A stretch of 64,000 bases of DNA from an uncultured Planctomycetia bacterium (GTDB lineage: Bacteria > Omnitrophota > Gorgyraeia > 2-02-FULL-51-18), in assembly GCA_964431835.1 (NCBI GenBank), contig CAYSKO010000002.1, positions 22,802 through 86,801 on the forward strand. The letters run 5' to 3'. The translations under genes and the position numbers were made by a program. Of this stretch, positions 5,005 to 22,610 are shown piece after piece. How positions within the stretch are numbered: the stretch's first letter is position 1; each line of letters begins with the position of its first letter. Below the pieces are notes generated by a model, which did no database searches, was not told the DNA's origin, and worked only from the letters and a program-made list of their open reading frames with translations.

Positions 5005-5489
5005 AGCGACTAGGAGCGGTCTTCCTCGCGCTGTCGCTTTTGACGGGAACGCCGGCGGGAGCAGAGGGCCGCCGTCAGGCGATCGTCTCCTGGGTAATCG
5101 ACGGCGACACGTTCCAGACCTCCGATGGCGAGCGGGTGCGCCTTTTGGGCATCGATTCCCCGGAATACCAGCCGCATCGCCGGAAGATCGATCCGTTCGG
5201 CAAGGAAGCGTCGGAATTTGCCAAAAAAACGCTCACCGGGAAGAAGGTGCTCCTCGAAGGGGACGTGGAACCCAAGGACAAGTACGGCCGGACGCTCGCG
5301 TACGTGTATCTTCCTGACGGGACCTTCGTGAACGAGAGCATCGTCGCCCAAGGACTCGCCAAAAGCCGCTATTACAAGCCCAACGGAAAGCACCGCGAGG
5401 AACTGAAAGCGGCTCAAAAGGCGGCTAAGAAGGCCAAGAAGGGCATTTGGAGCCTCGAGGCGTCTTCCGCCGGGCGCGGGTCTTCTTGA
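5001..5489 (+). CDS. Secreted thermonuclease (SNase/micrococcal nuclease family)
   Basis: Signal peptide followed by the SNase motifs VIDGDTF...RVRLLGIDSPE...GRTLAYVY. Confidence 0.8.
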   Translation: MKRLGAVFLALSLLTGTPAGAEGRRQAIVSWVIDGDTFQTSDGERVRLLGIDSPEYQPHRRKIDPFGKEASEFAKKTLTGKKVLLEGDVEPKDKYGRTLAYVYLPDGTFVNESIVAQGLAKSRYYKPNGKHREELKAAQKAAKKAKKGIWSLEASSAGRGSS

Positions 5490-5534
5490 TAATTGGGACG
5501 AAAGGGTTTAAAATGTCCTCAAAAAGGTCCCTTT

Positions 5535-7703: not shown

Positions 7704-8233
7704 TGGCCATCGAATTCAGAAACACCAAAGAGAAGCTGATCGCGCTGGGAGCGATCGTCACGCTCGTGACGGCGTTCATTGGTTGGAATTTCGTCGCCCG
7801 TCCGAAATCCGCGACGGCCAAGAAGCTCGAGGTCTCGCGCCGCGGAGACATCGAGAAGACGGATATCGTCCGCCGCATCGCCGAAGGGGAGACGAAGTTC
7901 GAATCCTACAGGGCTCGCCTAGCCGAGAAGCGCGAGTCGAGCTGGTTCATCGAAACGCTCAACGAGATCGCCGATCGCGCGGAGATCAACCTCTCTCTCG
8001 TGACGCCGCTTCCGCGCGTCGCCGGCGAAAGCTTCGAGCGTATTCCGCTGCGCATCGAGATGACGTGTCCCTATGGAAAACTCGGGGCGTTTCTTGAGGC
8101 AGTCGAGAACCACACGCCGACCATCCGCGTCGAATCGCTCCGGATCGAAGGCTCAGGCGACCCGTTGAAGACGGCCGACGAATTACGCGTCTCCTTGACG
8201 CTCGCGGTTCTGCGCCCGTCGGAGCCGCTTTGA
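7703..8233 (+). CDS. pilO: Type IV pilus assembly protein PilO
   Basis: N-terminal TM plus coiled coil and a PilO-like C-terminal domain. Positioned between pilMN and pilP/pilQ. Confidence 0.65.
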   Translation: MAIEFRNTKEKLIALGAIVTLVTAFIGWNFVARPKSATAKKLEVSRRGDIEKTDIVRRIAEGETKFESYRARLAEKRESSWFIETLNEIADRAEINLSLVTPLPRVAGESFERIPLRIEMTCPYGKLGAFLEAVENHTPTIRVESLRIEGSGDPLKTADELRVSLTLAVLRPSEPL

Positions 8234-8634
8234 TGCGCCGCGCCTTTTCGATCGCCGCAGCGCTTATCGCGCTCGCTTCCGTCTCCTTCGCGGCGGAAGC
8301 CCCAAAACCCCACGCCGCCCAAAAACCCGACGCCGCCAAAGTCGCCGCGCCGAAAGTCGAGGCCGTGACCGCGTCCTTCGACCGGGCGGTGAGAGACCCA
8401 TTCAATTTTTCAGGAGCTGGGCCGGTCCAAAAGACCGACAAGCCGAAACAGACGGGCTACACGCTCGAAGGGATCGTTTGGATGTCCGACCGTCCGCAGG
8501 CGATCGTGAACGGAAAGATCGTCGAGCGCGGCTCGAAGCTCGACAACGCGGAAATTTTGGATATCGATGAAAAAGGTGTTAAAATGCGCGTAGACGGCAA
8601 AGAGCTTCTTCTTAAGCCTAGGGGACAAAATTAA
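8230..8634 (+). CDS. PilP-like periplasmic pilus assembly protein (secreted, 134 aa)
   Basis: Signal peptide, Pro/Ala/Lys-rich linker and a beta-rich C-terminal domain. Lies immediately upstream of the secretin gene, as pilP does. Confidence 0.5.
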   Translation: MMRRAFSIAAALIALASVSFAAEAPKPHAAQKPDAAKVAAPKVEAVTASFDRAVRDPFNFSGAGPVQKTDKPKQTGYTLEGIVWMSDRPQAIVNGKIVERGSKLDNAEILDIDEKGVKMRVDGKELLLKPRGQN

Positions 8635-10374
8635 ATGCGTAATTTGAGGAAGTTTATAAACGTTTTTTTAATCGTTTTCTCAACCGTCGCGAACCCTTGC
8701 GCGATCCTCGCGGAAGAATTGGAAGAAGCGGAGGGCGAGGCCGACGTCGCGACGGCGGTGCGCGGCGAAGACAATCTCGTTTCGATGAACTTTGACGGTG
8801 CGCAGCTACGCGACGTGCTGAAGATTCTTTCCCAGCAGTCCGGCCTTAATTTCGTGGCGAGCGAAGACGTCGAATCGAAGAAGGTGACGGTTCTCTTGGA
8901 GGACGTTCCTGTCGGCGACGCACTTGAGAGCATCGTGCGCGCGAATTCCCTCCGCTACGAACGAAAGCCCGGCTCCAACGTCTTTGAGGTCTCCGCCGCG
9001 GAAGACACCTCGGGCGGCGTCCAGACGCGCGTCTTCATGCTCCGCTACACGCGTCTTTCGATTTCTCCTCTGGACGTGGGCGGTCAGAGCGCGATTAATG
9101 ATCTCCTCAAACCCGAAGAAGTCAGTGCCATCACGGCATCAGCCGGAGGCGCGGGCGCGGCAGCGGGCGCCGGAGCGGCGGGCGCCGAGTCGACCGGCAC
9201 GGAACTTGCGCTGGTCGCCGAACGCGGCGTCGATAAGATCGTCGCGACGCTCCTTTCCGAGACCGGAAAAGTCACGGTCGACATCCACACCAACAGCTTG
9301 ATCGTCACGGACGCCCCAGCCGTCCTCACAAAGATCGAGAAAGTACTCGAGAAGATCGACGTACCCACGCGTCAGGTCATGATCGAGTGCCACTTGATCG
9401 AGGTCTCAAAGACGGTGCTCGATGACCACGGCGTCGATTGGGGCGGCGCGAACGGCGCGCTCCTGGCGTTCGAGGGCGCCGACCGCTCGACTGCGTTTCC
9501 TTTCGCGGAGAGCATTTTCACGAACAGCTCCGAGCTTCGCGCCGCAACCCGGCCGAAGTCTGCGATCACGATGGGAACGGTCAGCGCAGAAAACTTCAGC
9601 GCAACGCTCCGCTTCATCACGAGCCAGTCCGATTCGAAAATCCTCGCGCGTCCGCGCGTGCTCACCCTGAACAACGAAGCCGCCAATATCCGTCTCGTCA
9701 CGAGCGCGGCGATCGCGCGCACCTCGACCATCACGGCGTCCGAAGGCATTACGACGCTCCAGACGGGCCAAGCCTCGCGGACAGACGTCGGCATCAGCCT
9801 GCGCATGACTCCCCAGGTGAACGAAAACCGCACGATCACGCTCTTCGTCGAGCCCTCTGTGACGACGGTCGCGGCGTCGACGTTCTTCCCGTCGGATTTC
9901 CTCGACCCCACCACCCGGTCGGTGCGGACGATGGCTCGCGTAAAGGACCATGAAACGCTCGTGATCGGCGGCCTCATCGACCGCAACCATTCACTTACCG
10001 ACAAACGGATCCCGGGACTCGGAAGCATTCCGTTCTTCGGCAACGCGTTCGCCTACAAAGAGCGCGGCAAGGCCGACCGCGAGCTGATCATCTTTATCAC
10101 GCCCCACATCGTGGAAGGGTACGACAGTCTGGCCGCGCAGAGCGCGACCGCGCCGGGCCGCGACACGGCGGTACGCCGCACCCTCGATTACTTCGTGAAA
10201 GAAGAAATGGAGCTCGCCACGGACCCGCTCGAGGACGCTGGTGCGGCACGCTTTCCGATCGACCGCCAGGAAAAGGCGATGCTCAAGCAGAGCGCCAAGC
10301 GCCCGGTCGCACCCTCCCTCGAGAAGGAAATGAGCCGCGCGCTCGATTCGCTCAGCCAAAAGAACGCGAAGTAA
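8635..10374 (+). CDS. pilQ: Type IV pilus secretin PilQ
   Basis: Secretin C-domain signature (TLVIGGLIDRNHSLTDKRIPGLGSIPFFGNAFAYKERGKADRELIIFITPHIV), N-terminal secretin/STN-like domains and a Gly/Ala-rich linker. Confidence 0.85.
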   Translation: MRNLRKFINVFLIVFSTVANPCAILAEELEEAEGEADVATAVRGEDNLVSMNFDGAQLRDVLKILSQQSGLNFVASEDVESKKVTVLLEDVPVGDALESIVRANSLRYERKPGSNVFEVSAAEDTSGGVQTRVFMLRYTRLSISPLDVGGQSAINDLLKPEEVSAITASAGGAGAAAGAGAAGAESTGTELALVAERGVDKIVATLLSETGKVTVDIHTNSLIVTDAPAVLTKIEKVLEKIDVPTRQVMIECHLIEVSKTVLDDHGVDWGGANGALLAFEGADRSTAFPFAESIFTNSSELRAATRPKSAITMGTVSAENFSATLRFITSQSDSKILARPRVLTLNNEAANIRLVTSAAIARTSTITASEGITTLQTGQASRTDVGISLRMTPQVNENRTITLFVEPSVTTVAASTFFPSDFLDPTTRSVRTMARVKDHETLVIGGLIDRNHSLTDKRIPGLGSIPFFGNAFAYKERGKADRELIIFITPHIVEGYDSLAAQSATAPGRDTAVRRTLDYFVKEEMELATDPLEDAGAARFPIDRQEKAMLKQSAKRPVAPSLEKEMSRALDSLSQKNAK

Positions 10375-10376
10375 CC

Positions 10377-12089
10377 TTGGGTAAACCCCACGTTCGGCTC
10401 GGCGAACTGCTGATCAAAGAGGGGAAAGTCACCCTCGCCGACATCGAACGCGCGATCGAGCTCCAAAAAAAAGACGAAACCTTCCTTGGCACCATCCTCG
10501 TCAAGCTCGGGGCGATCAGCGACGAGGATCTCGCGATCGCGCTCTCGAAGCAGCTCGGCGTCGCTTACGTTTCACGCGCGAACGGCCTCTTGATCCCCAT
10601 GCTCGATCAGGAGCTCAACAAACTCGTTCCCGAGGATTTCGCCCGCCGCCATTCCGTGCTGCCGATCCAGCTCGCCGGAGATACGCTCCGCGTGGCCATG
10701 ATCGACCCGACCGACATCGTCCTTCTCGACAACCTGAACCGCATCACGGCCCGATCGATCGACCGCGTGATCGCCACGAAGAAGGAGATCGACGCCGCGA
10801 TCGGCCAGTTCTACGGCGAAGGCGGCATGCTGAAAACCGCCATCGAAGCCTCCTTTCAGGCGAAGGAGCTGATCGGCGAAAGGGAGGACTTCGACTCTCA
10901 AATCTCGCTCGACGACCTCGTCGCCAGCGCCGAGAAGGCGCCGGTCATCAAGCTCACGGACCTCATCATCCGCCAGGCAATCAAAGAACGCGCCTCGGAT
11001 ATCCATCTCGAGCCGTTCGCGAACAAGATCGCGATCCGCTTCCGCATCGACGGCGTCCTGCGCGAAATATCGCCGCCGGACAAGTCGATGATGCTGCCGC
11101 TCATCTCGCGCGTGAAGATTCTCGCGAAGATGGACATCGCCGAGAAGCGTCTTCCCCAAGACGGGAGCTTCCGTGCCACGATCGAGAACCGCGCGATCGA
11201 TTTCCGCGTGTCGACGATCCCGACCGTGCACGGCGAGAAGATGGTTCTTCGTATCCTGGACCGCTCGTCCCTCAGTCTCACGCTGGACGGCCTGGGTTTC
11301 TCGCCGGACGAGAGCGCCATGTTCCGCAAAGCGATCAACCGGCCCTACGGTATGATTCTCCTGACGGGCCCGACCGGAAGCGGCAAAACGACCACCCTTT
11401 ATTCGGCTCTCAACGAACTGAAGAGCGGCGAAAAGAACATCGTCACCATCGAAGATCCGGTGGAGTACCAGATCCAGGGCATCAACCAGGTCCAGGTGAA
11501 GTCGTCGATCGGGCTCACGTTCGCGAGCGGCCTCCGCGCGTTCCTGCGTCAGGATCCGGACATCATGCTCGTCGGCGAAACCCGCGATCTCGAGACCGCG
11601 CAGATCTGCGTGCGCGCGGCGCTCACGGGCCACCTGGTTTTCACGACCCTTCACACCAACGACGCCCCGACGGCCATCAACCGCCTTATCGATTTGGGTA
11701 TTGAGCCATTTTTCGTCACGTCGTCCCTGCTTCTCACGGTCGCGCAGCGTCTGGTCCGGCGCCTTTGCCCGAAATGCAAAGAGCCGGTCGCCGCGGCCGA
11801 ATCCGGGCTTCCTTCGCCGTTTAAGGACGAAGCGAAGACCGTGTTCACGGCCCGGGGTTGCGACGCCTGCGCCAACACCGGCTACCTCGGCCGAATCCCG
11901 ATTTTCGAGATGATGTCCATGAGCGAGAAAATCGAGACGCTCGCTCTTCGAAACGCCGGCATGGCCGAGATCCGCGAGGCCGCGCGCGCCGCAGGAATGG
12001 TGACTCTCGAAGAAAGCGGCTACAGAAAAGTGCTTCGCGGCGACACCTCGCTCGAGGAAATTCTCCGCATGACGATGAGCGGTGGCTAA
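10377..12089 (+). CDS. pilB: Type IV pilus assembly ATPase PilB (GspE family), TTG start
   Basis: N-terminal T2SSE_N domain, Walker A GPTGSGKTTT, Asp and His boxes, and the tetracysteine motif CPKC...CDAC. Confidence 0.9.
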   Translation: MGKPHVRLGELLIKEGKVTLADIERAIELQKKDETFLGTILVKLGAISDEDLAIALSKQLGVAYVSRANGLLIPMLDQELNKLVPEDFARRHSVLPIQLAGDTLRVAMIDPTDIVLLDNLNRITARSIDRVIATKKEIDAAIGQFYGEGGMLKTAIEASFQAKELIGEREDFDSQISLDDLVASAEKAPVIKLTDLIIRQAIKERASDIHLEPFANKIAIRFRIDGVLREISPPDKSMMLPLISRVKILAKMDIAEKRLPQDGSFRATIENRAIDFRVSTIPTVHGEKMVLRILDRSSLSLTLDGLGFSPDESAMFRKAINRPYGMILLTGPTGSGKTTTLYSALNELKSGEKNIVTIEDPVEYQIQGINQVQVKSSIGLTFASGLRAFLRQDPDIMLVGETRDLETAQICVRAALTGHLVFTTLHTNDAPTAINRLIDLGIEPFFVTSSLLLTVAQRLVRRLCPKCKEPVAAAESGLPSPFKDEAKTVFTARGCDACANTGYLGRIPIFEMMSMSEKIETLALRNAGMAEIREAARAAGMVTLEESGYRKVLRGDTSLEEILRMTMSGG

Positions 12090-12092
12090 AGA

Positions 12093-13304
12093 GTGGCGAC
12101 TTACAGTTATACCGCGCGCGATTCGCGCGGCGGCCAGCTGACGGGCTTTCAGGAAGCCACGAACGAGTCCGAGGCGGTGAAGATCCTCCAGACGCGGGGA
12201 CTCACCATCACGAAAATCGGCCAGCCATCCGACGCTCATTCGACGGGCCGCAAAAAACGCCTCCGCAAACGCATCAAACAGGAAGATTACCTCGTTTTTA
12301 CGCGCGAGACCGCGACGCTTCTCGAAGCAGGCATCCCGCTCCTTCGCACGCTCGAGGTCATCGCCGAACAGGTCGAAAGCGCGAAACTCAGGACAACGGT
12401 CATCCAGATGATCACGGACATCAAAGCCGGGTCGACGTTCAAAGACGCGGTCGCGCACCACCCTAAAATATTCCCGGGTCTCTGGGTCCATCTACTCGAA
12501 GCGGGCGAGCTCTCGGGAAATCTCACGCTCGTCCTCAGCCAGATCGCGGAGCATCTCGAGACGAGCATCGGCATGAAGAAGAAGCTCGTGTCGGCGCTCG
12601 CGTATCCCGCGGTCCTCATCTGTGTCGCAGTCGGCGCCATATTCGTGTTCCTCCTCAAGATCATCCCGGTGTTCGACGATCTTTTCAAGAGCATGAACGC
12701 GCAGCTGCCTTTTCTGACGCAGGTAGTCATCAATCTCAGTCACGCGCTGCAGAAATATTTCGTCTGGTTCATCGTCGCCGTGGCCGTGGCTTCGTGGCTT
12801 TTCAAGCGCTGGATCGCCACGCCGACGGGCCGCCGAGCGATGGACGCGCTTCTTCTGCGCCTGCCGGTTTTCGGGAACCTCATGCGCGACGTGATCGTGG
12901 CGCGCATCACGGTCAATCTGGCGACGCTCGTGCGAAGCGGGGTGAACATCATCCAGTCGGTGGATATCACCTCCAAGGCCGCCGGCAATGCGCTCTACCG
13001 TGAAGCGCTGGAGCGCACGAAAAATGACCTTCAGCAGGGGAAGGCGATGTCGTCCTCGATGGCGGAGAGTCCGCTCTTCGCGCCGATCGTCGTCCACATG
13101 GTGATGATCGGAGAGGAGAGCGGAAAGCTCTCCGACATGCTCGGAAAACTCGCCGATTACTATGAGGACCGGGTCGAGGTTTTTCTCGGCCGGCTCGGTG
13201 TCCTCATTGAGCCCTTGATTCTAGTCGTGATTGGCGGGGTGATCGCTTTTCTCGTTATCGCAATGTTCTTACCGATACTCAGTCTCAGTCAAATCGTTAA
13301 ATGA
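12093..13304 (+). CDS. pilC: Type IV pilus inner-membrane platform protein PilC (GspF family), GTG start
   Basis: Two GspF repeats and three TM segments. Immediately downstream of pilB. Confidence 0.9.
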   Translation: MATYSYTARDSRGGQLTGFQEATNESEAVKILQTRGLTITKIGQPSDAHSTGRKKRLRKRIKQEDYLVFTRETATLLEAGIPLLRTLEVIAEQVESAKLRTTVIQMITDIKAGSTFKDAVAHHPKIFPGLWVHLLEAGELSGNLTLVLSQIAEHLETSIGMKKKLVSALAYPAVLICVAVGAIFVFLLKIIPVFDDLFKSMNAQLPFLTQVVINLSHALQKYFVWFIVAVAVASWLFKRWIATPTGRRAMDALLLRLPVFGNLMRDVIVARITVNLATLVRSGVNIIQSVDITSKAAGNALYREALERTKNDLQQGKAMSSSMAESPLFAPIVVHMVMIGEESGKLSDMLGKLADYYEDRVEVFLGRLGVLIEPLILVVIGGVIAFLVIAMFLPILSLSQIVK

Positions 13305-13333
13305 AGGCGTCGAAACCGATTAAAGAGTTAAAT

Positions 13334-13360
13334 AAAACCTTTAATAACTGTTGCGCCAAC
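13334..13360. repeat. Copy A of a conserved AT-rich intergenic motif (AACCTTTAATAA-CTGTTGC), about 85 nt upstream of the major pilin start
   Basis: A 12-mer AACCTTTAATAA followed by CTGTTGC is repeated almost exactly at 19127-19147, in a genome of about 63% GC. Confidence 0.5.
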
Positions 13361-13440
13361 TCCGCTGGAGTGATATACTAACAAGTAGAAAGAATAACCA
13401 ATACTAAGTTTTGTTGGGGTGTACATAAAGGGGGAAAGTT

Positions 13441-13851
13441 ATGATTAACCTGCTCGGATCCAAGCGCTTGGGCAACCAAAAAGGCTTCACGCTGCTTGAA
13501 ATCCTGATCGTCATCATCATCCTCGGCATTCTCGCCGCGTTGGCCATTCCGGTGTATTCGGCCGTCCGCGAAAAAGCCGTGAAACAAGAAGGTTACCAGC
13601 AGTTGGCGGCGACGCGTGAAGCGCAGCAGCGTTACTTTGCGGCCTACAACGCGTACACCAACGATACGGGTCTGCTCGAATACGACCCGAACGCCGTAGC
13701 GGCGGGCGTGTCCAAGCACTACGACTACACGTTCCCTGCGGCGTCGGCGACGGCGTTCACGGTTCGTGCGACGCGTAATTCGACGGCGCCTACGCCGCCG
13801 GCCGCGTACTACCTCGAAGTCAACGAGGCGGGAACGATCACGGAAGTCTAA
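13441..13851 (+). CDS. pilA: Type IV major pilin (prepilin with class III signal peptide)
   Basis: Leader ending ...NQKG followed by FTLLEILIVIIILGILAALAIPVY (G-1, F+1, E+5). Strong SD GGGGGA, own AT-rich upstream region and a rho-independent terminator downstream. Confidence 0.8.
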   Translation: MINLLGSKRLGNQKGFTLLEILIVIIILGILAALAIPVYSAVREKAVKQEGYQQLAATREAQQRYFAAYNAYTNDTGLLEYDPNAVAAGVSKHYDYTFPAASATAFTVRATRNSTAPTPPAAYYLEVNEAGTITEV

Positions 13852-13857
13852 AGAAAC

Positions 13858-13903
13858 CGGAAAGCCAAGCGGTCCTTACAGGCCGCTTGGCTTTTCTTTT
13901 TTG
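13858..13903 (+). terminator. Rho-independent terminator after the major pilin gene
   Basis: Perfect hairpin aaagccaagcgg...ccgcttggcttt followed by tcttttttg. Confidence 0.65.
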
Positions 13904-13915
13904 AGGGCCCGAAGC

Positions 13916-14326
13916 GTGCGAAACAGTCAAGATGGAATGACTTTGACGGAGATCACGATCGTCTCCGTGATCCTCGTGATGATGGCGGGCCTGGCGATTC
14001 CCAGTTATTTCAAAACCGTCGAGGAATCCCGCTCGAGCGAAGCGAAGGCGAATTTGAGCACGCTCCATTTCGCGCAGAAAATCTTTCGCGAGAGCAACTC
14101 GGCGAAGAAATTTTATCCCGTCGGCGGCGGGACGAAGACCACGACCTCCGACCTCACCGAAATCACGACCCAGCTGAACGTCGATATTTCCCCGAATTTT
14201 TATAATATCGAGATCGAAACCGCCGGTGGCGGAAGCACCACCGACTACACAGCGACCGCCACTCGCTCGAACGACTCGACCCGCAGATACCGAGTAGACG
14301 AATCCGGCGTCGTCATCAAGCTCTAA
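13916..14326 (+). CDS. Minor (pseudo)pilin with prepilin-type N-terminus, GTG start
   Basis: Short leader MRNSQDG then MTLTEITIVSVILVMMAGLAIPSYF (Gly-1, Glu+5). First gene of a seven-gene overlapping operon. Confidence 0.65.
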   Translation: MRNSQDGMTLTEITIVSVILVMMAGLAIPSYFKTVEESRSSEAKANLSTLHFAQKIFRESNSAKKFYPVGGGTKTTTSDLTEITTQLNVDISPNFYNIEIETAGGGSTTDYTATATRSNDSTRRYRVDESGVVIKL

Positions 14327-14336
14327 GGGAGCCGTT

Positions 14337-15473
14337 ATGAGGAAAGTCCCAGCTGTTCCGAAAGCGCCGATCCTGGCGCTTTTTATGCTTTCCGCGGTGT
14401 CCGCGGCCCTCGCGACGGACGTGGATAAATCCACGGAATATCCCGTGCCGTCCGGCATCTACGACGGGATCACTGTTTCTCGCTACCTCCGCATGGGAAT
14501 TCCCACGGCCGCGGTTCCCGACGTGGACGCCCACACCCCGAACGCCGGCACGGCAAATCCGGCGACCGCCTCCCAGGCGGCCCTGACCATCAACGGCAAC
14601 GTTTATATCCATCCGCTCGATCTCAATCTCACGGACGCGCAGCCGCCGGTCCCTTACGTGCCCCTGGATACCGACGGCGGCGCCGGAGCCACAGTACCGC
14701 TTCGCGACGTGGTCATCGACGAGAAGCTGACGGTGGACGGCACGACGTTCCGCGTCGTTCCGCTCAATTGGTGGGGCAATAGCCACTGGACTGCCGTGAA
14801 TGTCCCCGGTGCCGTCACTGGTGACAGCCGCGGCAGCGAATTCCAGGTCAACGGTGACATTCACGCCTACGCGTATCGCGCTTCCCAGAGGTATCCCGAT
14901 CAAAACGACACGCGCGTCCATTTCGGGCCAACGAAGGTAAGCGGTGTCTCGTGGCTCGACATGCGGGCCAAGACAGGCATGATCGACGCCAATCAGTGGG
15001 CGCACGGCATGAGCACGCTTTATTTCCGTGCCGATCCGATGCTCGTTTTGAACGGCTACTCGCGAGCCAACGTCGGTATCGGCACGACGAATCCCACTTA
15101 TCTTCTGCAGGTGGGCGATCCGGGCTCCGGCCTGCAGGCGATCGCGCATTCATGGGACATTTATAGCTCGCGCGCCTACAAAACCGACATCCGCCCTTTT
15201 TCGCCCGCCGATTACAGATTGGCCGCCGACAGAGTGGGGGATCTGAACCTCGTTCGTTTCCGTTACAAAGAGGACAAGCCAGGCGACAAGAAAATACTCG
15301 GATTCATCGCCGAGGAAGCTCCAAATGAAATTCTCTCACCGGACGGCAAAGCCGTGAGCCTCGGGGACACGCTGGGTTTCCTGCTGGCGGCCATCAAAGG
15401 CCTCAAAGCCGAAAACGACGCGCTCCGGACCGAGATCGAGCGGCTCGAAACCGCCGGGGGGAGGCTTTTGTGA
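14337..15473 (+). CDS. Secreted tail-fibre-like protein with C-terminal peptidase S74 intramolecular-chaperone domain (paralogue 1 of 3)
   Basis: Sec signal peptide. Tail-fibre motif ANVGIGTTNPTYLLQV, then the S74 Ser/Lys dyad context SWDIYSSRAYKTDI, LGFIAEEAPNEILSPDG and a C-terminal coiled coil LKAENDALRTEIERLE. 4-nt overlap with the next gene. Confidence 0.75.
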   Translation: MRKVPAVPKAPILALFMLSAVSAALATDVDKSTEYPVPSGIYDGITVSRYLRMGIPTAAVPDVDAHTPNAGTANPATASQAALTINGNVYIHPLDLNLTDAQPPVPYVPLDTDGGAGATVPLRDVVIDEKLTVDGTTFRVVPLNWWGNSHWTAVNVPGAVTGDSRGSEFQVNGDIHAYAYRASQRYPDQNDTRVHFGPTKVSGVSWLDMRAKTGMIDANQWAHGMSTLYFRADPMLVLNGYSRANVGIGTTNPTYLLQVGDPGSGLQAIAHSWDIYSSRAYKTDIRPFSPADYRLAADRVGDLNLVRFRYKEDKPGDKKILGFIAEEAPNEILSPDGKAVSLGDTLGFLLAAIKGLKAENDALRTEIERLETAGGRLL

Positions 15474-16591
15474 GGCGGCTCGCTTTCATCCTCCTCTTGG
15501 GTTTCGCACTGACGCAGGACGCGCGCGCGGCCGAAATCGACGTTACCACGTATTACGACGCCCCTTTCGGCGATTACAAAGAATTCCGGCTCTCCGGCAC
15601 TCTCGCCGCAGGGCTCGTCGACGCCGATCCGGGTCCTCTTTTGATCGGCGCCGGAAGCTACACGGCCGCTTTCTTCGGCGGCTTCAACGTGTGGAACAAT
15701 GACATTCCCGGGCACCTCGGGGCGAGCCGCGGCGGAGGGCTCACGGTCACGGGAAATCTCGACATTCAGGACGCCCTCGGGATCTCGCTTCTTTACGTGA
15801 ACGCGACGACCGACCGCGTCGGCATCGGGACGCGGGCGCCCGCAGCGGCGCTCGACGTGCGCGGCGAAGCCAAGGCGATCAACCTCTTCGCGTATGCGTC
15901 TCCGCTCGACCCGACCCAGCCGTACGCGGAAATGAACACCGAGGTCACGCCAGAGCGCTTCGGGGCGGGCTACTGGTGGAACCAGACGTTCCCGCATAGA
16001 TACCGTTTCTGCACGATGCACATCGACGGCGATCCGATCGCGATCCAATCGATCGACAAGAGTGCGATGGGGCTGGGAGGCTTGGGCCGAGGCCAGCTCA
16101 TCATAAACGGCATGCCCGTCGGCTACGTCACGTACGACGCGAAAGTGATTCTCGTTGTGGGAGAACCCCAGCAGAACCAAGTCCTCGACCCCGATCCCGA
16201 CGAGGCTACCGGTGACGGAGACGGGGATCCGAATCAGGGCGACTATCCCGTGGCGCTGCCGAAGCCGCAGGCCTTCGCCCATCAGTGGTATCAGTTCAGT
16301 TCCCGCGAGTACAAAAAGGACATCGTGCCTTTGATGCCCGCGGAGTATGGCACGATTCTCTCTTCGCTTGCGGTGATGGATGTCGTTCGCTACCGTTTCC
16401 ATTCGGAAAGCGGCACGACGAAACCGCACGTCGGGTTGATCGCCGAAGACGTGCCCGAGGACATGGCGCAGTCCGACCGCAAATCCATCGGACTAGGCGA
16501 GCAGGCCGCGTTTCTCCTGGCGTCCGCTAAAGCGCTCAGGGGCGAACAGGACGACATGCGCGCCCGCGTCGAAAGGCTGAAAAAATCATGA
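15470..16591 (+). CDS. Secreted tail-fibre-like protein with C-terminal peptidase S74 intramolecular-chaperone domain (paralogue 2 of 3)
   Basis: Signal peptide; DRVGIGTRAPAAALDV; QWYQFSSREYKKDIVP; VGLIAEDVPEDM; LRGEQDDMRARVERL. 4-nt overlaps on both sides. Confidence 0.75.
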   Translation: MRRLAFILLLGFALTQDARAAEIDVTTYYDAPFGDYKEFRLSGTLAAGLVDADPGPLLIGAGSYTAAFFGGFNVWNNDIPGHLGASRGGGLTVTGNLDIQDALGISLLYVNATTDRVGIGTRAPAAALDVRGEAKAINLFAYASPLDPTQPYAEMNTEVTPERFGAGYWWNQTFPHRYRFCTMHIDGDPIAIQSIDKSAMGLGGLGRGQLIINGMPVGYVTYDAKVILVVGEPQQNQVLDPDPDEATGDGDGDPNQGDYPVALPKPQAFAHQWYQFSSREYKKDIVPLMPAEYGTILSSLAVMDVVRYRFHSESGTTKPHVGLIAEDVPEDMAQSDRKSIGLGEQAAFLLASAKALRGEQDDMRARVERLKKS

Positions 16592-17754
16592 ACGCGCGCT
16601 TTTTCGCAACGATCGCTCTTGCCGCATTCATCGCAGCGCCTTTGCCGGCGCTGGCGGACGACGTGACGGTTCGAACGACCTATCCGAACCGCTTCGGCGA
16701 ACACACGAACGCCGACACCGAAAGCTCTCTAACGGTGGGGTCTCTCACGCAGGGCGCCTCGACGAACGTCTTCGGGGACGTCTCGATCGTGGGCGATCTC
16801 GTCATCACGAAGCCGACGAACGGCCTCGTACGCATCGCCCCCTCGCACGGCCCTTACCAGGAAGACGGCCTGCGCGTGCACCCCAACGGAAGCATTTCGA
16901 TCGGCAGCAACGTCGTCCTGCCGGCCGCGAATCCGCCCAAACTAAAGTCCCATACGACGCTGAAGGGCCGCCGACTTTACGCGTACGGCGATCCCGCGGA
17001 CACACACACGGTGTACGGGCTCATGCAGGGGTATCTCGATACTTCAGCAAGTTCCTATCATCTCCAGCGCAAAGCGCTCTTCGCGTCGCGTCCTGTCGCC
17101 GGCGGCAACATCATCGATCCCGCCGCCGGAACGTACGGGCCTCTCCGCATCGACGGCAGAGAAGTGCAAATGGGCCCACAGTACGATCCGAACGTACCGA
17201 CGGGACGTGGAAACCCCTCCGATCCTTGGTTTACAGGAATGCTCGAGCGGGTCATCATCGGCACGAACGAGATGTGGCTCGATCCGGTCGATACGCCGGA
17301 ACCTGAGATTTTCCTTCAGGTGGGCCATCCGACCGATCCCGACCCCACCGATCCCGAGCGCATCCCCGGCATAAACGGTGCTCCAGACGAGCCGCCGCAG
17401 CCGACCGGCGGCGCGGCGAGTAACTGGCGGGTTTTCAGCTCGCGTGAGTATAAGAAGGACATCGTGCCGTTCGACGCCGCCGCGCAGGCGGGCGCGCTCG
17501 AGGCGATCTCCCGGCTCGACGTGGTCCGCTACCGCTTTAAGAGCGAGCCCGTGAACGCCAAGCCGCATACCGGCGTGATCGCGGAGGACCTCCCCGCCGC
17601 CATCCGCTCGGCGAGCGGCAAAGGCCTGGACCTTGGCCAGGCGTATTCCTACGCCGCGGCGGCGCTCAAAGCGCTGAAGACCGAGAACGACGTGCTCAAG
17701 ACCCGTCTCGAAAAGCTCGAAGCGGAAGCGGCGGCCCGAAAGGCGCGGCCGTGA
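16588..17754 (+). CDS. Secreted tail-fibre-like protein with C-terminal peptidase S74 intramolecular-chaperone domain (paralogue 3 of 3)
   Basis: Signal peptide; NWRVFSSREYKKDIVPF; TGVIAEDLPAAI; LKALKTENDVLKTRLEKLE. The C-terminus is closely related to paralogue 2. Confidence 0.75.
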   Translation: MNARFFATIALAAFIAAPLPALADDVTVRTTYPNRFGEHTNADTESSLTVGSLTQGASTNVFGDVSIVGDLVITKPTNGLVRIAPSHGPYQEDGLRVHPNGSISIGSNVVLPAANPPKLKSHTTLKGRRLYAYGDPADTHTVYGLMQGYLDTSASSYHLQRKALFASRPVAGGNIIDPAAGTYGPLRIDGREVQMGPQYDPNVPTGRGNPSDPWFTGMLERVIIGTNEMWLDPVDTPEPEIFLQVGHPTDPDPTDPERIPGINGAPDEPPQPTGGAASNWRVFSSREYKKDIVPFDAAAQAGALEAISRLDVVRYRFKSEPVNAKPHTGVIAEDLPAAIRSASGKGLDLGQAYSYAAAALKALKTENDVLKTRLEKLEAEAAARKARP

Positions 17755-18101
17755 AACTCTCCTCGGCGCGTGGTCTTACGCTCGTCGAGATCGTGATATC
17801 CGCTCTTCTTATTTCGACCGTCATGGCGCTTCTTTTGAACGCGTTCGTAAACGCCAGTAAATGGATTTCTCCCGAGAACAACATCGCTCACGGCCTCGCG
17901 CGCGAGAAATTGGAGAATCTTCTGGAAGAGGTCCGCCAGGACCGTTGGGACGACGCGGCTCGGCGCCTGCATCCCGATTACGATCCGCCGTCCGAAGCTC
18001 TCACGTTGAACGCCGTCGCCTACACGCGCGACTACGACGTGGAGGCTGTGACCGGGAGGCCCTACCGCAAAGCGAAGGTGACCGTCCAATGGCCTTCTTA
18101 A
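17751..18101 (+). CDS. Minor (pseudo)pilin, prepilin-type N-terminus
   Basis: MKLSSARG then LTLVEIVISALLISTVMALLL (Gly-1, Glu+5). Confidence 0.65.
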   Translation: MKLSSARGLTLVEIVISALLISTVMALLLNAFVNASKWISPENNIAHGLAREKLENLLEEVRQDRWDDAARRLHPDYDPPSEALTLNAVAYTRDYDVEAVTGRPYRKAKVTVQWPS

Positions 18102-18733
18102 AATCTTCCCGCGGCGTCACGCTGGTGGAAATCGTCATCGCGGTTCTCCTCATCTCGGTGATCTTCCTCGGGTCGACGACGGTCTACGTGACCGCACTCA
18201 AATTCTTCAACGCTGTCCGCGACAAGTCGCCGCAGGTTTACGGCTTTCTCGCCGCCGAGACGGTCGTCCGGAAAGTCGCGGTCGCGAGTGAGGCTATCGT
18301 GAACGACTCGGGCTCCTCGAACGGCGCGTCGACCTTGGACGCGGATGGCCTGAACTACGTGACCGGTAAACAGATCAAGATCCGCTGGGATTTCACCCTC
18401 GCTGATTGGACGCCGCTCAACACGCCTTCCAACACCGCGGACGATACGTGGGTGAAATACAAGATCATCGAGAATCCCGGCGGTTCCGGGACCTACCGAC
18501 TTTACACGCGCAAGGACGCGAGCGTCACGGCCGACGTCACGACCGCTGACGAAGAAGTGGACACGCTTCTCACGCTAGGAGCCAATTCCGTGTTCCGCCT
18601 TTCAAGCCCGAGCGGCAACGCCGAAGGTGCGGCGACCACGGTGGATGTGCATCTGGAAACCGTCGGAGGCAGCTCGTCCCAGACGGTCGTGATCCATACC
18701 GACACCGCCGTGGGCGGGGGCGCCAAAAGATGA
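18089..18733 (+). CDS. Minor (pseudo)pilin, prepilin-type N-terminus
   Basis: MAFLKSSRG then VTLVEIVIAVLLISVIFLG. Start is placed at the internal ATG of the longer ORF-track call (17861), to avoid a long overlap and to give a canonical leader. Confidence 0.65.
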   Translation: MAFLKSSRGVTLVEIVIAVLLISVIFLGSTTVYVTALKFFNAVRDKSPQVYGFLAAETVVRKVAVASEAIVNDSGSSNGASTLDADGLNYVTGKQIKIRWDFTLADWTPLNTPSNTADDTWVKYKIIENPGGSGTYRLYTRKDASVTADVTTADEEVDTLLTLGANSVFRLSSPSGNAEGAATTVDVHLETVGGSSSQTVVIHTDTAVGGGAKR

Positions 18734-19125
18734 AACCGAGACCCTCGAGCGATTCCGGGCTCGTCCTCACGATCGTCGTAATCACGATCCTCATGATGCT
18801 CGGGCTTGTGGCCGCCGTCCTCAGCCTGGCGGCGAACCAGCGCCTCCTTTCCGACGAATTGAGCTCCCGGCACGTGCGCGCCTATTACCGGGCGAGGGGA
18901 GGGGTTGTGGAGGCTCGCTGGCGCATCCGGAACGACCAGACTGCGGACATCGGGGGAGGCGGGACGTTCACGAACGCCGCCTATAATCCGGCCCCTTACT
19001 TCATCGATCTCGACGCGAACGCCGTCCACACCGCACGAACGGACGACGACGACGTGCGCGTGGACATCGGCGCGTTGGATGCAGCGACGGGCGTGCGCCC
19101 GGTCGAGGTTACGGGCTTCGAATAA
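18730..19125 (+). CDS. PilX-N-terminal-domain-like minor pilus protein
   Basis: GLVLTIVVITILMMLGLVAAVLSLAANQRLLSDE resembles the PilX_N hydrophobic segment. Last gene of the overlapping operon. Confidence 0.45.
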   Translation: MKPRPSSDSGLVLTIVVITILMMLGLVAAVLSLAANQRLLSDELSSRHVRAYYRARGGVVEARWRIRNDQTADIGGGGTFTNAAYNPAPYFIDLDANAVHTARTDDDDVRVDIGALDAATGVRPVEVTGFE

Positions 19126-19219: not shown

Positions 19220-20011
19220 TTGAGCAAACGGACATGGGCCGTCTTTCTCGCGGCCACCACATTCCTCATCACCGGATTCACCATCTTCCTCCTTTATAAC
19301 AGCCGGGAGGCCGAGAAGAAGATCCGCGTCCAGAAGGAGGTCGAGCTTTCCAAGAAGATGGTGGAGCTCACCGAGAAGCAGGGGCAGATATCCACTCTCC
19401 TCAAGCAGAAGCTCGATCTCGAAGAACAGTTCCACGTCAAGATCGCCTCGCTCGAGACGACCATCAAGGATTATGAGGAAAACTCCAAGGCCGCTGCGGC
19501 GCGTATGGAGGCGGTGCTCGAGGAGAACGAAACCCTGAAGCGCGACTTATCCGCGCGGGACAAGAAGATGTCCGACCTGACCCGCCGCATGCGCACTCTT
19601 GAATCCGACAAAACGGACCTTCTCGAATCCCTTTCCAAGAAGGCCACCGCGAAGGCCACCGAGAACGCTTCCTCAGCCGTCCCTGCCGGAGACGAGCGTC
19701 CCGCCGTGACGGGCGATTTCGGCGCGCCCGAGGTGAACCCGGTGAAGCTCGGCAAGATCGTGGTTCAGAAATCGTCCGGCCGCGCGGCGCGGGTCGAACA
19801 CATTGACAAACTTTACGGATTCATCGTCATCAACGCCGGCGCGAAGGACGGTCTTCGTGCGAATTCGGTCGTGAACATCGTCCGCGGGAACAAGCTCATC
19901 GGCAAGGCGGTCGTTCAAAAGGTACGCCCCGACATCTCGGCCGCGACGGTGATGTCCGAATGGACGCGCGACGAGATCAAAGTCGGCGACATGGTTAGCC
20001 GGTTTTCCTAA
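19220..20011 (+). CDS. Membrane-anchored coiled-coil protein with a C-terminal beta-rich domain (hypothetical)
   Basis: N-terminal TM, about 130 aa of heptad-rich coiled coil, and a C-terminal domain KLGKIVVQK...VVNIVRGNKLIGKAVVQKV. Confidence 0.45.
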   Translation: MSKRTWAVFLAATTFLITGFTIFLLYNSREAEKKIRVQKEVELSKKMVELTEKQGQISTLLKQKLDLEEQFHVKIASLETTIKDYEENSKAAAARMEAVLEENETLKRDLSARDKKMSDLTRRMRTLESDKTDLLESLSKKATAKATENASSAVPAGDERPAVTGDFGAPEVNPVKLGKIVVQKSSGRAARVEHIDKLYGFIVINAGAKDGLRANSVVNIVRGNKLIGKAVVQKVRPDISAATVMSEWTRDEIKVGDMVSRFS

Positions 20012-20065: not shown

Positions 20066-20776
20066 ATGAAACTTCCCCCCTTAGCCTCCGCGCTCGCGGC
20101 CGTCACTACTCTTGTTTGCGTCTCCATGCCCGCTTTCGCGGACGTCGTCCGCCTCAAGAACGGGCGAGACCTTTCCGGAACCGTTTCCAAGGCCAACGAC
20201 GGCACGCTCGCGCTTGCGATCGCCGGCGGCGTCGTAAAGCTCGATCCGGAAGACGTCGAATGGACGGTCCGCGGCACGGACGAGGAAATTGAGGGCAAAC
20301 GCCGCGCGGCCTCTCAGTACGAGCGCGCCGAGCTGGCACGCGAAGCGGGGAATTGGGTCGTGGCAGCCGAAGCGTACGAGCGTGCCGCCGAACTCACGGC
20401 GAGCGCCGATCTTTTGAACAACGCAGGCACGGCCTGGGCACAGGCGGGGAACATCGACCGCGCCGTGCCGCAATTTCGCCGGGCCCTTTCCGAGAATCCT
20501 TCCCATGCGGCCGCGCGGCGCAATCTCGCAGCGGCTCTCCGCGAACGCGGCGCGGCGTCCTACGCCAAAGGCGAATTCGAAGCCGCGCTCCTTTTGTGGC
20601 GCGAGGCGTTGAGGCTTTCCGGCGGCGGCGCCGATCTTCTGAACGACTTGGGCTCTTCGCATGGCATGCTCGGCAACCGTGCGGCCGCCGAGCGCTTCTA
20701 CAAGAAGGCGCTCCGCGTCGCGGCGGGCCACGGGACGGCCTCGCGGAATCTGCGTACGCTGGCGGGGAACGCGTGA
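20066..20776 (+). CDS. Secreted TPR-repeat protein
   Basis: Signal peptide MKLPPLASALAAVTTLVCVSMPAFA; TPR-like Ala-rich helical repeats. GTGA overlap with the next gene. The ORF-track start at 20030 is an alternative. Confidence 0.55.
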   Translation: MKLPPLASALAAVTTLVCVSMPAFADVVRLKNGRDLSGTVSKANDGTLALAIAGGVVKLDPEDVEWTVRGTDEEIEGKRRAASQYERAELAREAGNWVVAAEAYERAAELTASADLLNNAGTAWAQAGNIDRAVPQFRRALSENPSHAAARRNLAAALRERGAASYAKGEFEAALLLWREALRLSGGGADLLNDLGSSHGMLGNRAAAERFYKKALRVAAGHGTASRNLRTLAGNA

Positions 20777-21942
20777 AACGCGCCCGCGGGTTCACGCTCG
20801 TCGAGATTCTGATCGCCGTCACGGTGCTCGGCGTGCTGACGGCTCTGGCGTCCATCACCTATTTCCGCCACCGCGAGAACGCGATTCGCGCCGAGGCGCT
20901 CATCAACATGGACGCCATCCGCCGCGCCGAGCTCCTCGAGCACGAGGCGACCGGGACCTACGCGAACGCCGGCGACACCGCCGCGATCAACGGCCAGTTC
21001 GGCCTCGGCATCACCGAGCATCATTATTCCTACAGCGTGGTCGACGCCACCGACAACGATTTCCGGATCGTCGCCCAGAGACTCGGTTCACTGGGGGACG
21101 AGGGCTTGCCGGTTCTGCTGGCGATGGCACCGAGCGGGGAAATATTCGGAGCACCGGTGCCGCCCGCGGTGCCAGAAGCTCCCGGAGTCCGTCCGACGAC
21201 GTCCGGCGGCGGGTCCGCCGGCGGCGTTTCGTCCGGAGGCGGAGGCGGCAGTGGCATGCCTTCCGGCCAAACCGGAGGTGGCGGCGCCACGGGACGCACC
21301 GGTGGCGGCTCGGTCAGCGGCGCGGCGGGGAACGTGCCGGGAGCCGGCGGCGACCGGCCGCTCGTGTACATTCCGCGGGGTCTCGACGTCTGGGACAACT
21401 GGCCCGACGAAAACGAGATCAACGTCGACGGTCCCGTCGGTGAAGCCTCGCTTCTCGAGGCCTTCACGCTGATACAGAACGAATCGTCGACTTCCGCCAC
21501 GACCGCGGATCTTTTCCGAAAAGCAGTGTCCATTTCGTTTGGCGCGGCGGCGCTCTTCTTGGAAGACGCGCCCTGCGAATTCGCTTACGCCTGCTTTGTT
21601 CCGTCTCCTCTTTCGGTGCCGCCGGATACGCCCGCTCCACTGCCGCAGATTCTCTTCAACCCGGATTACGTCGATGAGGAACCCGAAGCGCTCGCCGCGA
21701 TCCTCGTCCACGAGGGCACTCACCTCCAGCAGTATCTCGACGCGACTCTCTTCGACGACGAGTTGGACGTGATCGACATCGAGTTCACCGCTTTTTGGAA
21801 TTCGGCTGTTTACTGGAAAGAAGTCCGCGCCGAGCAGCTGCCTGCGGACACCGACCTCGAAGAGGATTTGGAATTCATCTACCAGACGGCCCTCCTGGGC
21901 GAGGCCGCCATGCGGGCTCTCATCGACGCGCGTTACCCGTGA
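20773..21942 (+). CDS. Prepilin-type protein fused to a Gly-rich linker and a C-terminal HExxH (putative zinc metalloprotease-like) domain, GTG start
   Basis: VKRARG then FTLVEILIAVTVLGVLTALASITYF (canonical class III signal). About 60 aa of Gly/Ser-rich linker. C-terminal domain carries HEGTHLQQ and downstream acidic residues (DIEFTAF). Confidence 0.65.
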   Translation: MKRARGFTLVEILIAVTVLGVLTALASITYFRHRENAIRAEALINMDAIRRAELLEHEATGTYANAGDTAAINGQFGLGITEHHYSYSVVDATDNDFRIVAQRLGSLGDEGLPVLLAMAPSGEIFGAPVPPAVPEAPGVRPTTSGGGSAGGVSSGGGGGSGMPSGQTGGGGATGRTGGGSVSGAAGNVPGAGGDRPLVYIPRGLDVWDNWPDENEINVDGPVGEASLLEAFTLIQNESSTSATTADLFRKAVSISFGAAALFLEDAPCEFAYACFVPSPLSVPPDTPAPLPQILFNPDYVDEEPEALAAILVHEGTHLQQYLDATLFDDELDVIDIEFTAFWNSAVYWKEVRAEQLPADTDLEEDLEFIYQTALLGEAAMRALIDARYP

Positions 21943-22571
21943 CGCGTCGGACCGCGATCGTCGGCACCGCCGCCGCGCTCGTTCTTCTCGGGTTCTTTTC
22001 GCTCGCCGCCCTCTTCTGGCCTTCGTTTCCCGGCAAGTCCGATTCCCAGTCGTACATCCGGTGGCGCGGCGACAAAGAGCCTTTACACGTTTCGTTCGAC
22101 GTCCCCGAAGGGTGGCGCTTGGCGCTCGACCGCGGCCGTATCGAGCGTTTCGAGCAGGTGCTCGTGAAAGGCCCGCGCAACGCCGACGATACCTATTCGG
22201 CCCTCCTCGTCGTGCGCGCCACGCCGTCCGCTTCAAAGGGCGGCAAGTTCGCTGGCGCACGTGAGTTCGCCGCCGACTACCGCCGCCACCTGTACACCGG
22301 CCATTCCGTCGTGGCAGACCGCGCGTCGCGCGTGGCAGGGGAGCCCGCGATCGACCTCACGGTCGCGTACGTCGTGCCGCCCTTGCGCGTCAAACCGGCG
22401 CGTGGAGAACCTCTAAAGCCCATCCCTGTTCCGGTGCAAAGCCGGACCGTCTTCTTCGAGCGCGGCGGCTGGATTTACGAACTCATCCTCTCCTCCGATC
22501 GCCGCGAATTTGCCGCTCACGCTCCGAACTTCGAACGCCTGGCGGAAAGTTTCCGCTTCGGCGACTCCTAA
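21939..22571 (+). CDS. Membrane-anchored hypothetical protein, translationally coupled (GTGA) to the pilin-HExxH gene
   Basis: GTG start; N-terminal TM (IVGTAAALVLLGFFSLAALFW) and an extracytoplasmic domain. Confidence 0.45.
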   Translation: MTRRTAIVGTAAALVLLGFFSLAALFWPSFPGKSDSQSYIRWRGDKEPLHVSFDVPEGWRLALDRGRIERFEQVLVKGPRNADDTYSALLVVRATPSASKGGKFAGAREFAADYRRHLYTGHSVVADRASRVAGEPAIDLTVAYVVPPLRVKPARGEPLKPIPVPVQSRTVFFERGGWIYELILSSDRREFAAHAPNFERLAESFRFGDS

Positions 22572-22610
22572 GGCTATACACTCCCGCCGTCGGGCGTTAT
22601 AATACCGACC

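Follow-up and report, generated by a model that had tools for sequence, protein, structure and literature searches.

A predicted type IV pilin carrying a gluzincin-like HExxH domain on a long tether, encoded with TPR and PsbP-like partner genes in Omnitrophota

Type-4 filaments have established roles in adhesion, motility, DNA uptake and secretion, and enzyme-carrying pilins exist so far only as uncharacterised database predictions. Here we describe a cassette of three genes in a 64,000-nucleotide stretch of DNA (hereafter, the window) from an uncultured bacterium of the Omnitrophota (contig CAYSKO010000002.1, positions 22,802 to 86,801 of the forward strand). The middle gene of this cassette, gene 2, is predicted to encode a type IV pilin with an HExxH domain at the end of a long tether. 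The closest described systems are the modular pilins, which are widespread and for which S74 and M26 peptidase modules have been predicted, none of them characterised (Raynaud et al. 2021, PMC8179133). The Streptococcus sanguinis pilins PilB (vWA module) and PilC (lectin module), and the S74 and M26 peptidase-pilins (PMC8179133), likewise combine a class III signal, a small pilin module and an extra functional module, presumably so that a type-4 filament can present this extra module. Gene 2 differs from these proteins in several respects: its module is an uncharacterised HExxH+Glu domain without a Pfam or NCBIfam family; its Gly/Ser tether has 70 residues, and elsewhere in the family up to more than 100, in place of a short linker; its host is a diderm with a secretin; it is accompanied by two dedicated partner genes, one PsbP-like and one encoding a tetratricopeptide repeat (TPR) protein; and the cargo of its family sits on both type IVa-like and Flp-like anchors. 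Because the domain has no database signature, it would have escaped the survey of Raynaud et al. The large minor pilins of the TadG, CofB and GspK type are also pilin-like proteins with extra domains and are thought to lie at filament tips, but their extras are adhesive or structural and are grafted onto the pilin fold, unlike the enzyme on a disordered tether that we propose here.

We propose that gene 2 encodes a cargo pilin that provides the cell with a filament-displayed metallohydrolase and that its neighbours encode periplasmic handling partners. We give this proposal about an even chance of being right, and we infer both the display and the activity. The features on which the argument depends are as follows (window coordinates).

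20066..20776, + strand: gene 1, secreted TPR protein, 236 aa (TPR_2 at 59.8 bits, signal peptide)
20773..21942, + strand: gene 2, modular type IV pilin, 389 aa, GTG start (translation, overlap, public gene calls)
20773..20790, + strand: class III leader peptide MKRARG (N_methyl and TIGR02532 above cutoff)
20791..21150, + strand: pilin module, residues 7-126 (model, paralogy to the major pilin, phmmer, Foldseek)
21151..21360, + strand: predicted disordered tether, Pro-rich then Gly/Ser-rich, residues 127-196 (model confidence, pLDDT, below 50 over 127-193)
21361..21939, + strand: acidic HExxH domain, residues 197-389 (model pLDDT 97.0; isoelectric point, pI, 4.05)
21709..21723, + strand: HEGTH motif, H313, E314 and H317 (conservation; helix 304-322)
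21781..21783, + strand: E337, candidate third zinc ligand, in the motif IDxE[FY] (105/105 representatives)
21939..22571, + strand: gene 3, membrane-anchored PsbP-like protein, 210 aa, GTG start (transmembrane helix at about 21954-22019; PsbP_2 in orthologues)

The gene 2 product begins with the 6-residue leader MKRARG followed by FTLVEILIAVTVLGVLTALASI, which places Gly at -1, Phe at +1 and Glu at +5. Both Pfam N_methyl (31.2 bits against a cutoff of 21.2, E=1.4e-7) and TIGR02532 (25.8 bits against 16.3, E=6.2e-6) matched this region above their cutoffs. Judged by its sequence, gene 2 carries the class III signal of a prepilin, and cleavage by a prepilin peptidase is predicted after Gly6, to leave a mature protein that starts FTLVE with Glu at +5. 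A preliminary description of this DNA had called the signal a textbook one; the profile matches bear this out, and the Gly-1 and Glu+5 context on which it had made the assignment depend is present.

In the full-length AlphaFold model, the pilin module (residues 7-126, about 120 residues) consists of a helix at 8-60 and four strands at 85-126, and in this model the pilin head shows the lollipop fold, a long alpha-1 helix with an antiparallel beta sheet. The module shares 34% identity, over 102 residues, with the predicted major pilin of the same locus (13441-13851), and phmmer matched it to the solved major pilins Thermus PilA, MshA and PilE with E-values down to 1.4e-4. Its top Foldseek match was the Pseudomonas aeruginosa minor pilin PilE (4noa; probability 0.92, target-normalised template modelling (TM) score 0.61, E=0.58). 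Beyond the module, residues 127-193 are disordered in the full-length model, with pLDDT below 50, and a well-folded C-terminal domain comes after them. The tether as a whole (residues 127-196, about 70 residues) is 49% Gly+Ser, and linkers rich in Gly, Ser and Thr were present in most members of the family. The preliminary description had a Gly/Ser linker of 60 residues following the signal; such a linker exists, at about residues 127-196, but the pilin module at 7-126 intervenes. Its broader claim of a real prepilin fused to an HExxH domain stands, in that the signal, the pilin head and the folded C-terminal domain were all seen. Gene 2 is a modular pilin in the sense of Raynaud et al. 2021, that is, a pilin module joined to a module not specific to type-4 filaments.

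The C-terminal domain (193 residues) was modelled alone with a 43-sequence alignment, which gave a pLDDT of 97.0 and a predicted TM score (pTM) of 0.93. The topology of the predicted model is alpha-alpha-beta-beta-beta-alpha(HExxH)-alpha(Glu)-alpha-alpha. As had been noticed earlier, the HEGTH motif lies in an acidic domain of about 200 residues: it occupies residues 313-317, and the domain has a pI of 4.05, with 37 Asp/Glu against 7 Lys/Arg. In both the full-length and the domain models the motif sits in the middle of helix 304-322, so the helical setting that the preliminary description wanted checked is predicted in a confident model. E337 is at the start of the next helix (333-355), 20 residues beyond H317. 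Among 105 full-length domain representatives, H313, E314, H317 and E337 were kept in 103, 104, 104 and 105, respectively, and E337 was invariant in alignments A1, A2 and A4 as well. Judging by this conservation, the HExxH motif is no chance match. We argue for a live catalytic site because the four residues H, E, H and E are conserved in the gluzincin pattern; the domain is probably a live gluzincin-like hydrolase, with E337 as a candidate for the third zinc ligand that had been left to be sought. The idea of a catalytically dead binding domain, raised as an alternative at the outset, is unlikely and was rejected on the 98-100% conservation of the motif residues.

The predicted arrangement recalls the gluzincins, namely the thermolysin type, the minigluzincins selecase and projannalysin, and the M48 proteins BepA and Ste24, which have the same order of a strand and then the HExxH helix, with a Glu in the next helix. 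The domain shares with them a small size, a predominance of helices and a three-stranded sheet. In thermolysin the spacing from His to Glu is 20 residues, as it is from H317 to E337. The domain differs from the gluzincins in that it shows no significant sequence or Foldseek similarity to them, in that the His-to-Glu spacing within the family ranges from 12 to 62 residues, and in the family-specific residues W348 and G376-E377, which were also strongly conserved among the 105 representatives. We describe the domain as gluzincin-like and as a new uncurated family that may belong to this fold.

Profile comparisons placed the domain in the neighbourhood of zincins, and the check for a gluzincin- or DUF4157-like fold proposed in the preliminary description did not come out in its favour at the level of curated families, with every zincin link falling below the curated thresholds. 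The best sub-threshold matches were M91 (NleD/HopH1), DUF6782 and eCIS-core/DUF4157. DUF6782, with a cutoff of 27 bits, scored 15-17 bits on the window domain and up to 19.1 bits in the family, over about 30 residues around HExxH. Among 43 members, sub-threshold zincin matches went to DUF6782 in 23, to SprT-like families in 10, to M48 in 8 and to M91 in 3. The family consensus reached 23.9 bits against M91/NleD (cutoff 25) over 135 residues, in an alignment running helix-helix-strand through the HExxH helix, and matched eCIS-core/DUF4157 weakly (E=0.004). The Pfam scan of the window domain itself returned no M91 match, and scans of the domain consensus against PHROGs and NCBIfam gave only families of unknown function or sub-threshold matches. 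A profile search of the PDB with the C-terminal domain yielded matches only at E>=0.15, to minigluzincins, Ste24 and BepA, aligned over the strand and the HExxH helix; the minigluzincin MJ1213 was found in this way. Foldseek against the PDB revealed no overall similarity of the domain to the fold of solved zincins. Two family assignments were tried and rejected: membership of DUF6782, at 15.1-19.1 bits against 27, and membership of M91, at 23.9 bits against 25 and with an hhalign E-value of 0.036 that is too weak. Unlike gene 2, the M91 proteins are substrates of type III secretion systems that have neither pilin anchors nor PsbP-like or TPR neighbours.

These comparisons also bear on whether the domain is a peptidase at all. 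It could instead be a metal-dependent binding module or perform another chemistry, for example that of the aKG-HExxH hydroxylase type, for which a weak match to the NCBIfam aKG-HExxH peptide beta-hydroxylase (E=0.0066-0.0073) and the lack of a structural match to any solved protease may be cited, as may the fact that most characterised pilin modules are binding modules (PMC8179133). The hydroxylase match, however, amounts to 16 bits against a cutoff of 40, whereas the sub-threshold matches are overwhelmingly to peptidase families, and two invariant residues, the Glu of HExxH that acts as catalytic base in zincins and the Glu downstream of it, are more in keeping with a hydrolase than with a binding site. 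We regard a non-peptidase role as very unlikely.

We defined the family by an exhaustive profile search, with proteins grouped into representative clusters at 50% identity and membership set at E<=1e-3. It comprised at least 330 representative clusters at this threshold and 135 at E<=1e-10. Most of the proteins are 350-450 aa long with the HExxH domain at the C-terminus, and most come from Omnitrophota. A scan of species-representative genomes, which used the closer alignment A6 and is biased to the near clade, found this clade in metagenome-assembled genomes (MAGs) of Omnitrophota, in some MAGs that carry the label Planctomycetia, and in Candidatus Velamenicoccus archaeovorus, whose genome is complete. 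An N-terminal W-x2-WPD segment, likewise family-specific, is conserved in the near clade. In the literature we found no paper on DUF6782, on the domain family, or linking a minor pilin to a metalloprotease domain.

A census of anchors was made on the 114 representatives in which 120 residues or more precede the domain, with a G/A/S-x4-E class III motif as the strict test. The motif was found in 82 of them (65 type IVa-like; 17 Flp-like, with Glu-Tyr or Glu-Phe), and Pfam support for the Flp-like class was weak (Class_IIIsignal E=0.0027, Flp_Fap E=0.087). The remainder were mostly variants of the class III signal, such as '...LSEKLF', truncated starts and Gln at +5. This last variant was seen in the closest relatives of the window protein (P0003-P0005, for example locus L003, 10001-11233), where Gln replaces Glu at +5 in a signal that reads SG before the cleavage site and YTLVQ after it. 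Tip or tip-capping pilins such as GspK also lack Glu+5. Some family members have FN3-like or Cys-rich spacers between the tether and the cargo.

In V. archaeovorus (NZ_CP019384.1, with the two cargo paralogues at about 1.631-1.634 Mb; locus L027, 4876-8873), cargo-pilin and PsbP-like genes form tandem pairs, each cargo pilin with its own partner gene, and the two anchors are of different classes, one with a type IVa-like signal and the other of Flp or archaeal type. An FN3-like spacer is present in both cargos, and the C-terminus of each reads '...PDLPEY'. The PsbP-like copies of the two pairs differ very little over about 130 residues, and we take this to suggest either a recent duplication or gene conversion. 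A conserved '...(D/Q)LPEY' or '...LPEF' tail also forms the exact C-terminus of proteins in a distant clade (L032, 8001-9266; L035, 636-1934) and is absent from the window protein. The tail could be a recognition tag, for example for a TPR protein; V. archaeovorus has the LPEY tail without an adjacent TPR gene.

The HExxH domain also occurs without pilin modules, as in a giant YD-repeat-like protein in one MAG. In this protein, at locus L023 (2803-9871), the HExxH/Glu domain lies midway in a giant open reading frame that continues past the end of the locus, is over 2,350 aa long and has many YD-repeat-like units; it has an N-terminal signal or transmembrane segment, and its N-terminal region is shared with P0089. 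Another protein, P0151 (759 aa), combines an alpha/beta-hydrolase-like N-terminal half with a duplicated C-terminal part of the HExxH domain; in one of the copies HExxH is replaced by HQGEH (HxxEH).

The partner genes were analysed in the same way. Gene 1 encodes a Sec signal peptide (nucleotides 20066-20140), a small beta domain ('ADVVRLKNGR') and some four TPR repeats. Pfam TPR_2 matched at 59.8 bits (cutoff 27) and TPR_1 at 46.3, with TPR_16, TPR_14, TPR_12 and TPR_11 also above their cutoffs, and the tandem 34-residue repeats predicted from the sequence mark the product as a TPR protein. The N-terminal domain matched NF047433 weakly, and the homologues keep both the signal peptide and the beta domain. 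Gene 3, earlier described as encoding a single-pass membrane protein, does have an N-terminal transmembrane helix, and the product probably also has a periplasmic PsbP-like domain, recognised at the family level by PsbP_2, one of the profiles of the PsbP-like alpha-beta-alpha sandwich. The window protein itself matches only PsbP, and weakly (E=0.083); among 18 orthologues, 9 match PsbP_2 (best E=2.9e-8) and 5 match PsbP, the orthologue in L032 being precomputed as PsbP (weak). The orthologues carry transmembrane helices, signal peptides or lipoboxes, the last in loci L005, L025, L031 and L032. A PDB profile search with the PsbP-like protein gave nothing usable.

In at least 23 loci the cargo-pilin gene is directly followed by a PsbP-like homologue, which was immediately 3' in every Omnitrophota locus with sequence, Flp-type members included. 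In a reverse look-up, two of two distant gene 3 homologues lay directly behind a gene for a pilin, tether and HExxH domain. About 14 distinct loci have the TPR gene 5' of the pilin gene, and tight overlaps between the cassette genes were conserved among relatives. On the contig of P0012, the gene called directly 5' of the cargo pilin is glutamyl-tRNA-synthetase-like (689 aa) and includes the TPR partner as a C-terminal extension; this fusion may be real or an effect of the gene call. The conserved unit is the cargo pilin with the PsbP-like gene, usually accompanied by the TPR gene; a pilus-operon neighbourhood is no part of it. The same three-gene arrangement, which the preliminary description suggested should be sought elsewhere, recurs in many distant genomes, and this recurrence supports the TPR and membrane proteins as functional partners of the pilin.

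One alternative concerns delivery. Under it, the domain would be an offensive protease, a filament-delivered effector in the sense of NleD/HopH1, directed at prey or host cells, and the PsbP-like lipoprotein would be a periplasmic immunity or latency protein. The pairing with the downstream gene is strictly one-to-one, duplicated pairs included, the nearest Pfam family of the domain consensus is the effector protease family M91, the eCIS-core/DUF4157 match (E=0.004) points the same way, if weakly, and the domain also occurs inside the giant YD-repeat-like protein. The M91 similarity is nevertheless sub-threshold and marginal, the pair is conserved and syntenic among core genes rather than polymorphic, and the variable N-terminus and conserved C-terminal domain are the reverse of what is found in polymorphic toxins. 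To our knowledge, the PsbP-like fold is also not a protease-inhibitor fold. Omnitrophota commonly encode type IVa (T4a) and Tad pili, host-dependent lifestyles have been inferred for them (Seymour et al., PMC10066038), and their inferred standing as pilus-reliant predators or parasites (PMC10066038) would suit an effector. On balance we consider delivery improbable. A polymorphic toxin-immunity system was tried as a separate candidate and did not fit, in that the C-terminal domain is conserved and the anchors vary, with a small downstream gene as the only common feature.

The boundaries of the cassette genes were examined in the window. The three + strand genes at 20066-22571 are joined by GTGA overlaps in the order TPR gene, pilin gene and PsbP-like gene: the GTG that starts gene 2 (20773) runs into the TGA stop of gene 1 (20066-20776), and the stop of gene 2, which ends at 21942, overlaps the GTG start of gene 3 at 21939. 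Both GTGA overlaps had been reported before and lie where they were placed, and identical public contigs, on which genes were called independently, yield the same 389-aa and 210-aa products. The gene 1 start chosen by the automatic call, 20126, is 60 nt later than the ATG at 20066 and removes the Sec signal. The ATG at 20066 adds a typical Sec signal, MKLPPLASALAAVTTLVCVSMPAFA followed by DVV (SMPAFA before the predicted cleavage). We prefer 20066, the start originally given, because the homologues keep the signal and the 'PA-x-AD-VV-LKNGR' junction. A near-consensus sigma-70-like promoter (10/12 matches) lies at 22575-22603, just 5' of the uvrD-like gene that follows the trio, and we looked for a terminator between the trio and the upstream genes and found none that was convincing.

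Upstream of the cassette, the window contains a complete filament operon and one further gene.

6147..19125, + strand: type-4-filament operon, context (profile matches, gene calls)
19220..20011, + strand: gene for a membrane-anchored coiled-coil protein, 263 aa, context (between the minor pilins and the trio)

The operon encodes PilM-like and PilO/type II secretion system M-like proteins, a secretin, an MshEN-type ATPase, a platform protein and two pilins, and further three secreted S74-chaperone fibre-like proteins and three minor pilins. The trio had been placed about 900 nt past the minor-pilin genes; the distance is right, at about 940 nt, but the gap is occupied by the coiled-coil gene, and the proximity holds only in the closest relatives. 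The coiled-coil gene is conserved in L003 and L005 and not in the distant loci. Two ideas that tied the trio to its surroundings were rejected. The first made the trio an operon-specific accessory of the upstream pilus and fibre genes, whereas the adjacency is limited to close relatives. The second had the protease process the neighbouring S74-domain proteins, whereas the cassette also occurs without S74 proteins; S74 domains are, moreover, self-cleaving chaperones.

Several other observations were made in the window. The S74 proteins, encoded at 14337-17754 between the genes for pilins and those for minor pilins, are three tandem paralogous secreted proteins (378, 373 and 388 aa). All three have Peptidase_S74 (endosialidase/tail-fibre intramolecular chaperone) at the C-terminus, and relatives (L003, L005) conserve them. 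They resemble trimeric fibres of the phage-tail-fibre kind, in association with the type-4 filament. After the first pilin gene, at 13859-13896, a strong 16-bp hairpin with a T-run may be a terminator or an attenuator. Directly 5' of the PilM-like gene, 3892-6128 holds genes for an M48 (Ste24/HtpX-like) peptidase, a staphylococcal-nuclease homologue and a protein with a bifunctional-nuclease domain. An unusual combination is encoded at 2287-3363, where a CBM48/AMPK glycogen-binding module is joined to a ParA/MinD-type ATPase. On the minus strand at about 50585, a further open reading frame with a class III signal (RSAVG followed by FSLVEAMVALGLGG) points to another pilin-like gene outside the main operon.

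The position of the cassette in other genomes brings in the main rival to filament display, a tethered periplasmic protease with a TPR adaptor. According to this explanation, the class III N-terminus would be an inner-membrane anchor only and never polymerised, and the tether would let the domain reach substrates in the envelope. The TPR and PsbP-like proteins would be substrate adaptors or regulators, and the whole would be a split analogue of BepA (M48 + TPR) in envelope or secretin quality control. BepA is a periplasmic HExxH/Glu protease with TPR repeats; here the TPR protein is separate and secreted, and the protease is on a pilin. In most loci the cassette is found amid housekeeping genes, far from pilus operons, and all three products are predicted to be extracytoplasmic. 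The TPR protein weakly matches the pilotin types PilW (3.3e-6) and Tgl, there are weak profile matches to BepA and M48, and a folded cargo would be hard to pass through the secretin beside a filament. The BepA and M48 matches are, however, far from significant (E=1.8). We favour display over membrane anchoring because Glu+5, which serves filament assembly and not anchoring, is retained across type IVa-like, Flp-like and variant signals; because the same cargo sits on two pilin classes in one genome, in the parallel fusions of V. archaeovorus; because the pilin head resembles a major pilin; and because the FN3-type spacers and the giant YD-repeat context are typical of surface proteins and point outside the cell. 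The tethered periplasmic protease seems to us doubtful, if more credible than delivery of an effector.

A number of results weigh against filament display of an active enzyme. The passage of a folded module through the secretin is a known constraint in diderms, and we infer pilus display, cleavage and protease activity alike from the sequence. The cassette adjoins a pilus operon only in the window and the closest relatives and lies elsewhere among unrelated housekeeping genes, no prepilin peptidase motif was found in the 64-kb window, and the TPR gene was not detected upstream in 6-7 loci, V. archaeovorus among them. As to the enzyme, no curated-family threshold in Pfam or NCBIfam was reached by the domain. 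The hhalign comparison with NleD was marginal, at E=0.07 with the single E. coli NleD sequence and E=0.036 with a 12-sequence alignment. Foldseek found no solved relative of the domain in the PDB (best E 1.3), and in BFVD it found only weak predicted viral proteins (E=1.7e-3, TM 0.47-0.55), with SprT-like and IrrE-like zincins among the viral matches at E>1.

Filament display could work as follows. A prepilin peptidase encoded elsewhere would cleave the gene 2 product, and the pilin module would enter a type-4 filament as a low-abundance subunit, most likely at the tip because a folded 22-kDa module must pass the secretin. The filament would present a zinc-dependent hydrolase, probably a peptidase, about 10-20 nm away from itself, and the enzyme would target extracellular proteins or proteins on the surface of a partner cell. 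The PsbP-like protein or lipoprotein and the secreted TPR protein would be periplasmic partners; until the pilin leaves the inner membrane, they would stay bound to the module as a chaperone, a latency factor or a hand-over factor. The three-gene cassette would be self-contained and would plug into whatever type-4 filament machinery the cell has.

A bolder version makes the cassette a portable enzyme-on-pilus weapon of ultra-small predatory or parasitic bacteria. Interchangeable class III anchors would allow a latent zinc protease to be mounted on filaments of either kind, T4a or Tad. In the periplasm the PsbP-like lipoprotein would prevent its activity, the TPR protein serving as a loading adaptor; once extended on its 10-20 nm tether, the protease would digest the surface layer of the host or prey at pilus contact. 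We think this version unlikely; if true, it would represent the first enzymatically active type-4 pilin and a new route of effector delivery.

What is new here is an uncurated family of at least 330 clusters in which an intact-looking HExxH/Glu domain is tethered to two pilin classes and has a dedicated PsbP-like partner. If the protein stays in the periplasm, class III anchors would have been reused for envelope proteases. The Omnitrophota are nanobacteria thought to be pilus-dependent epibionts or predators. If the domain is active and displayed, the finding would widen the repertoire of type-4 filaments, offer a molecular candidate for host attack in these bacteria, and provide a three-protein system for heterologous testing.

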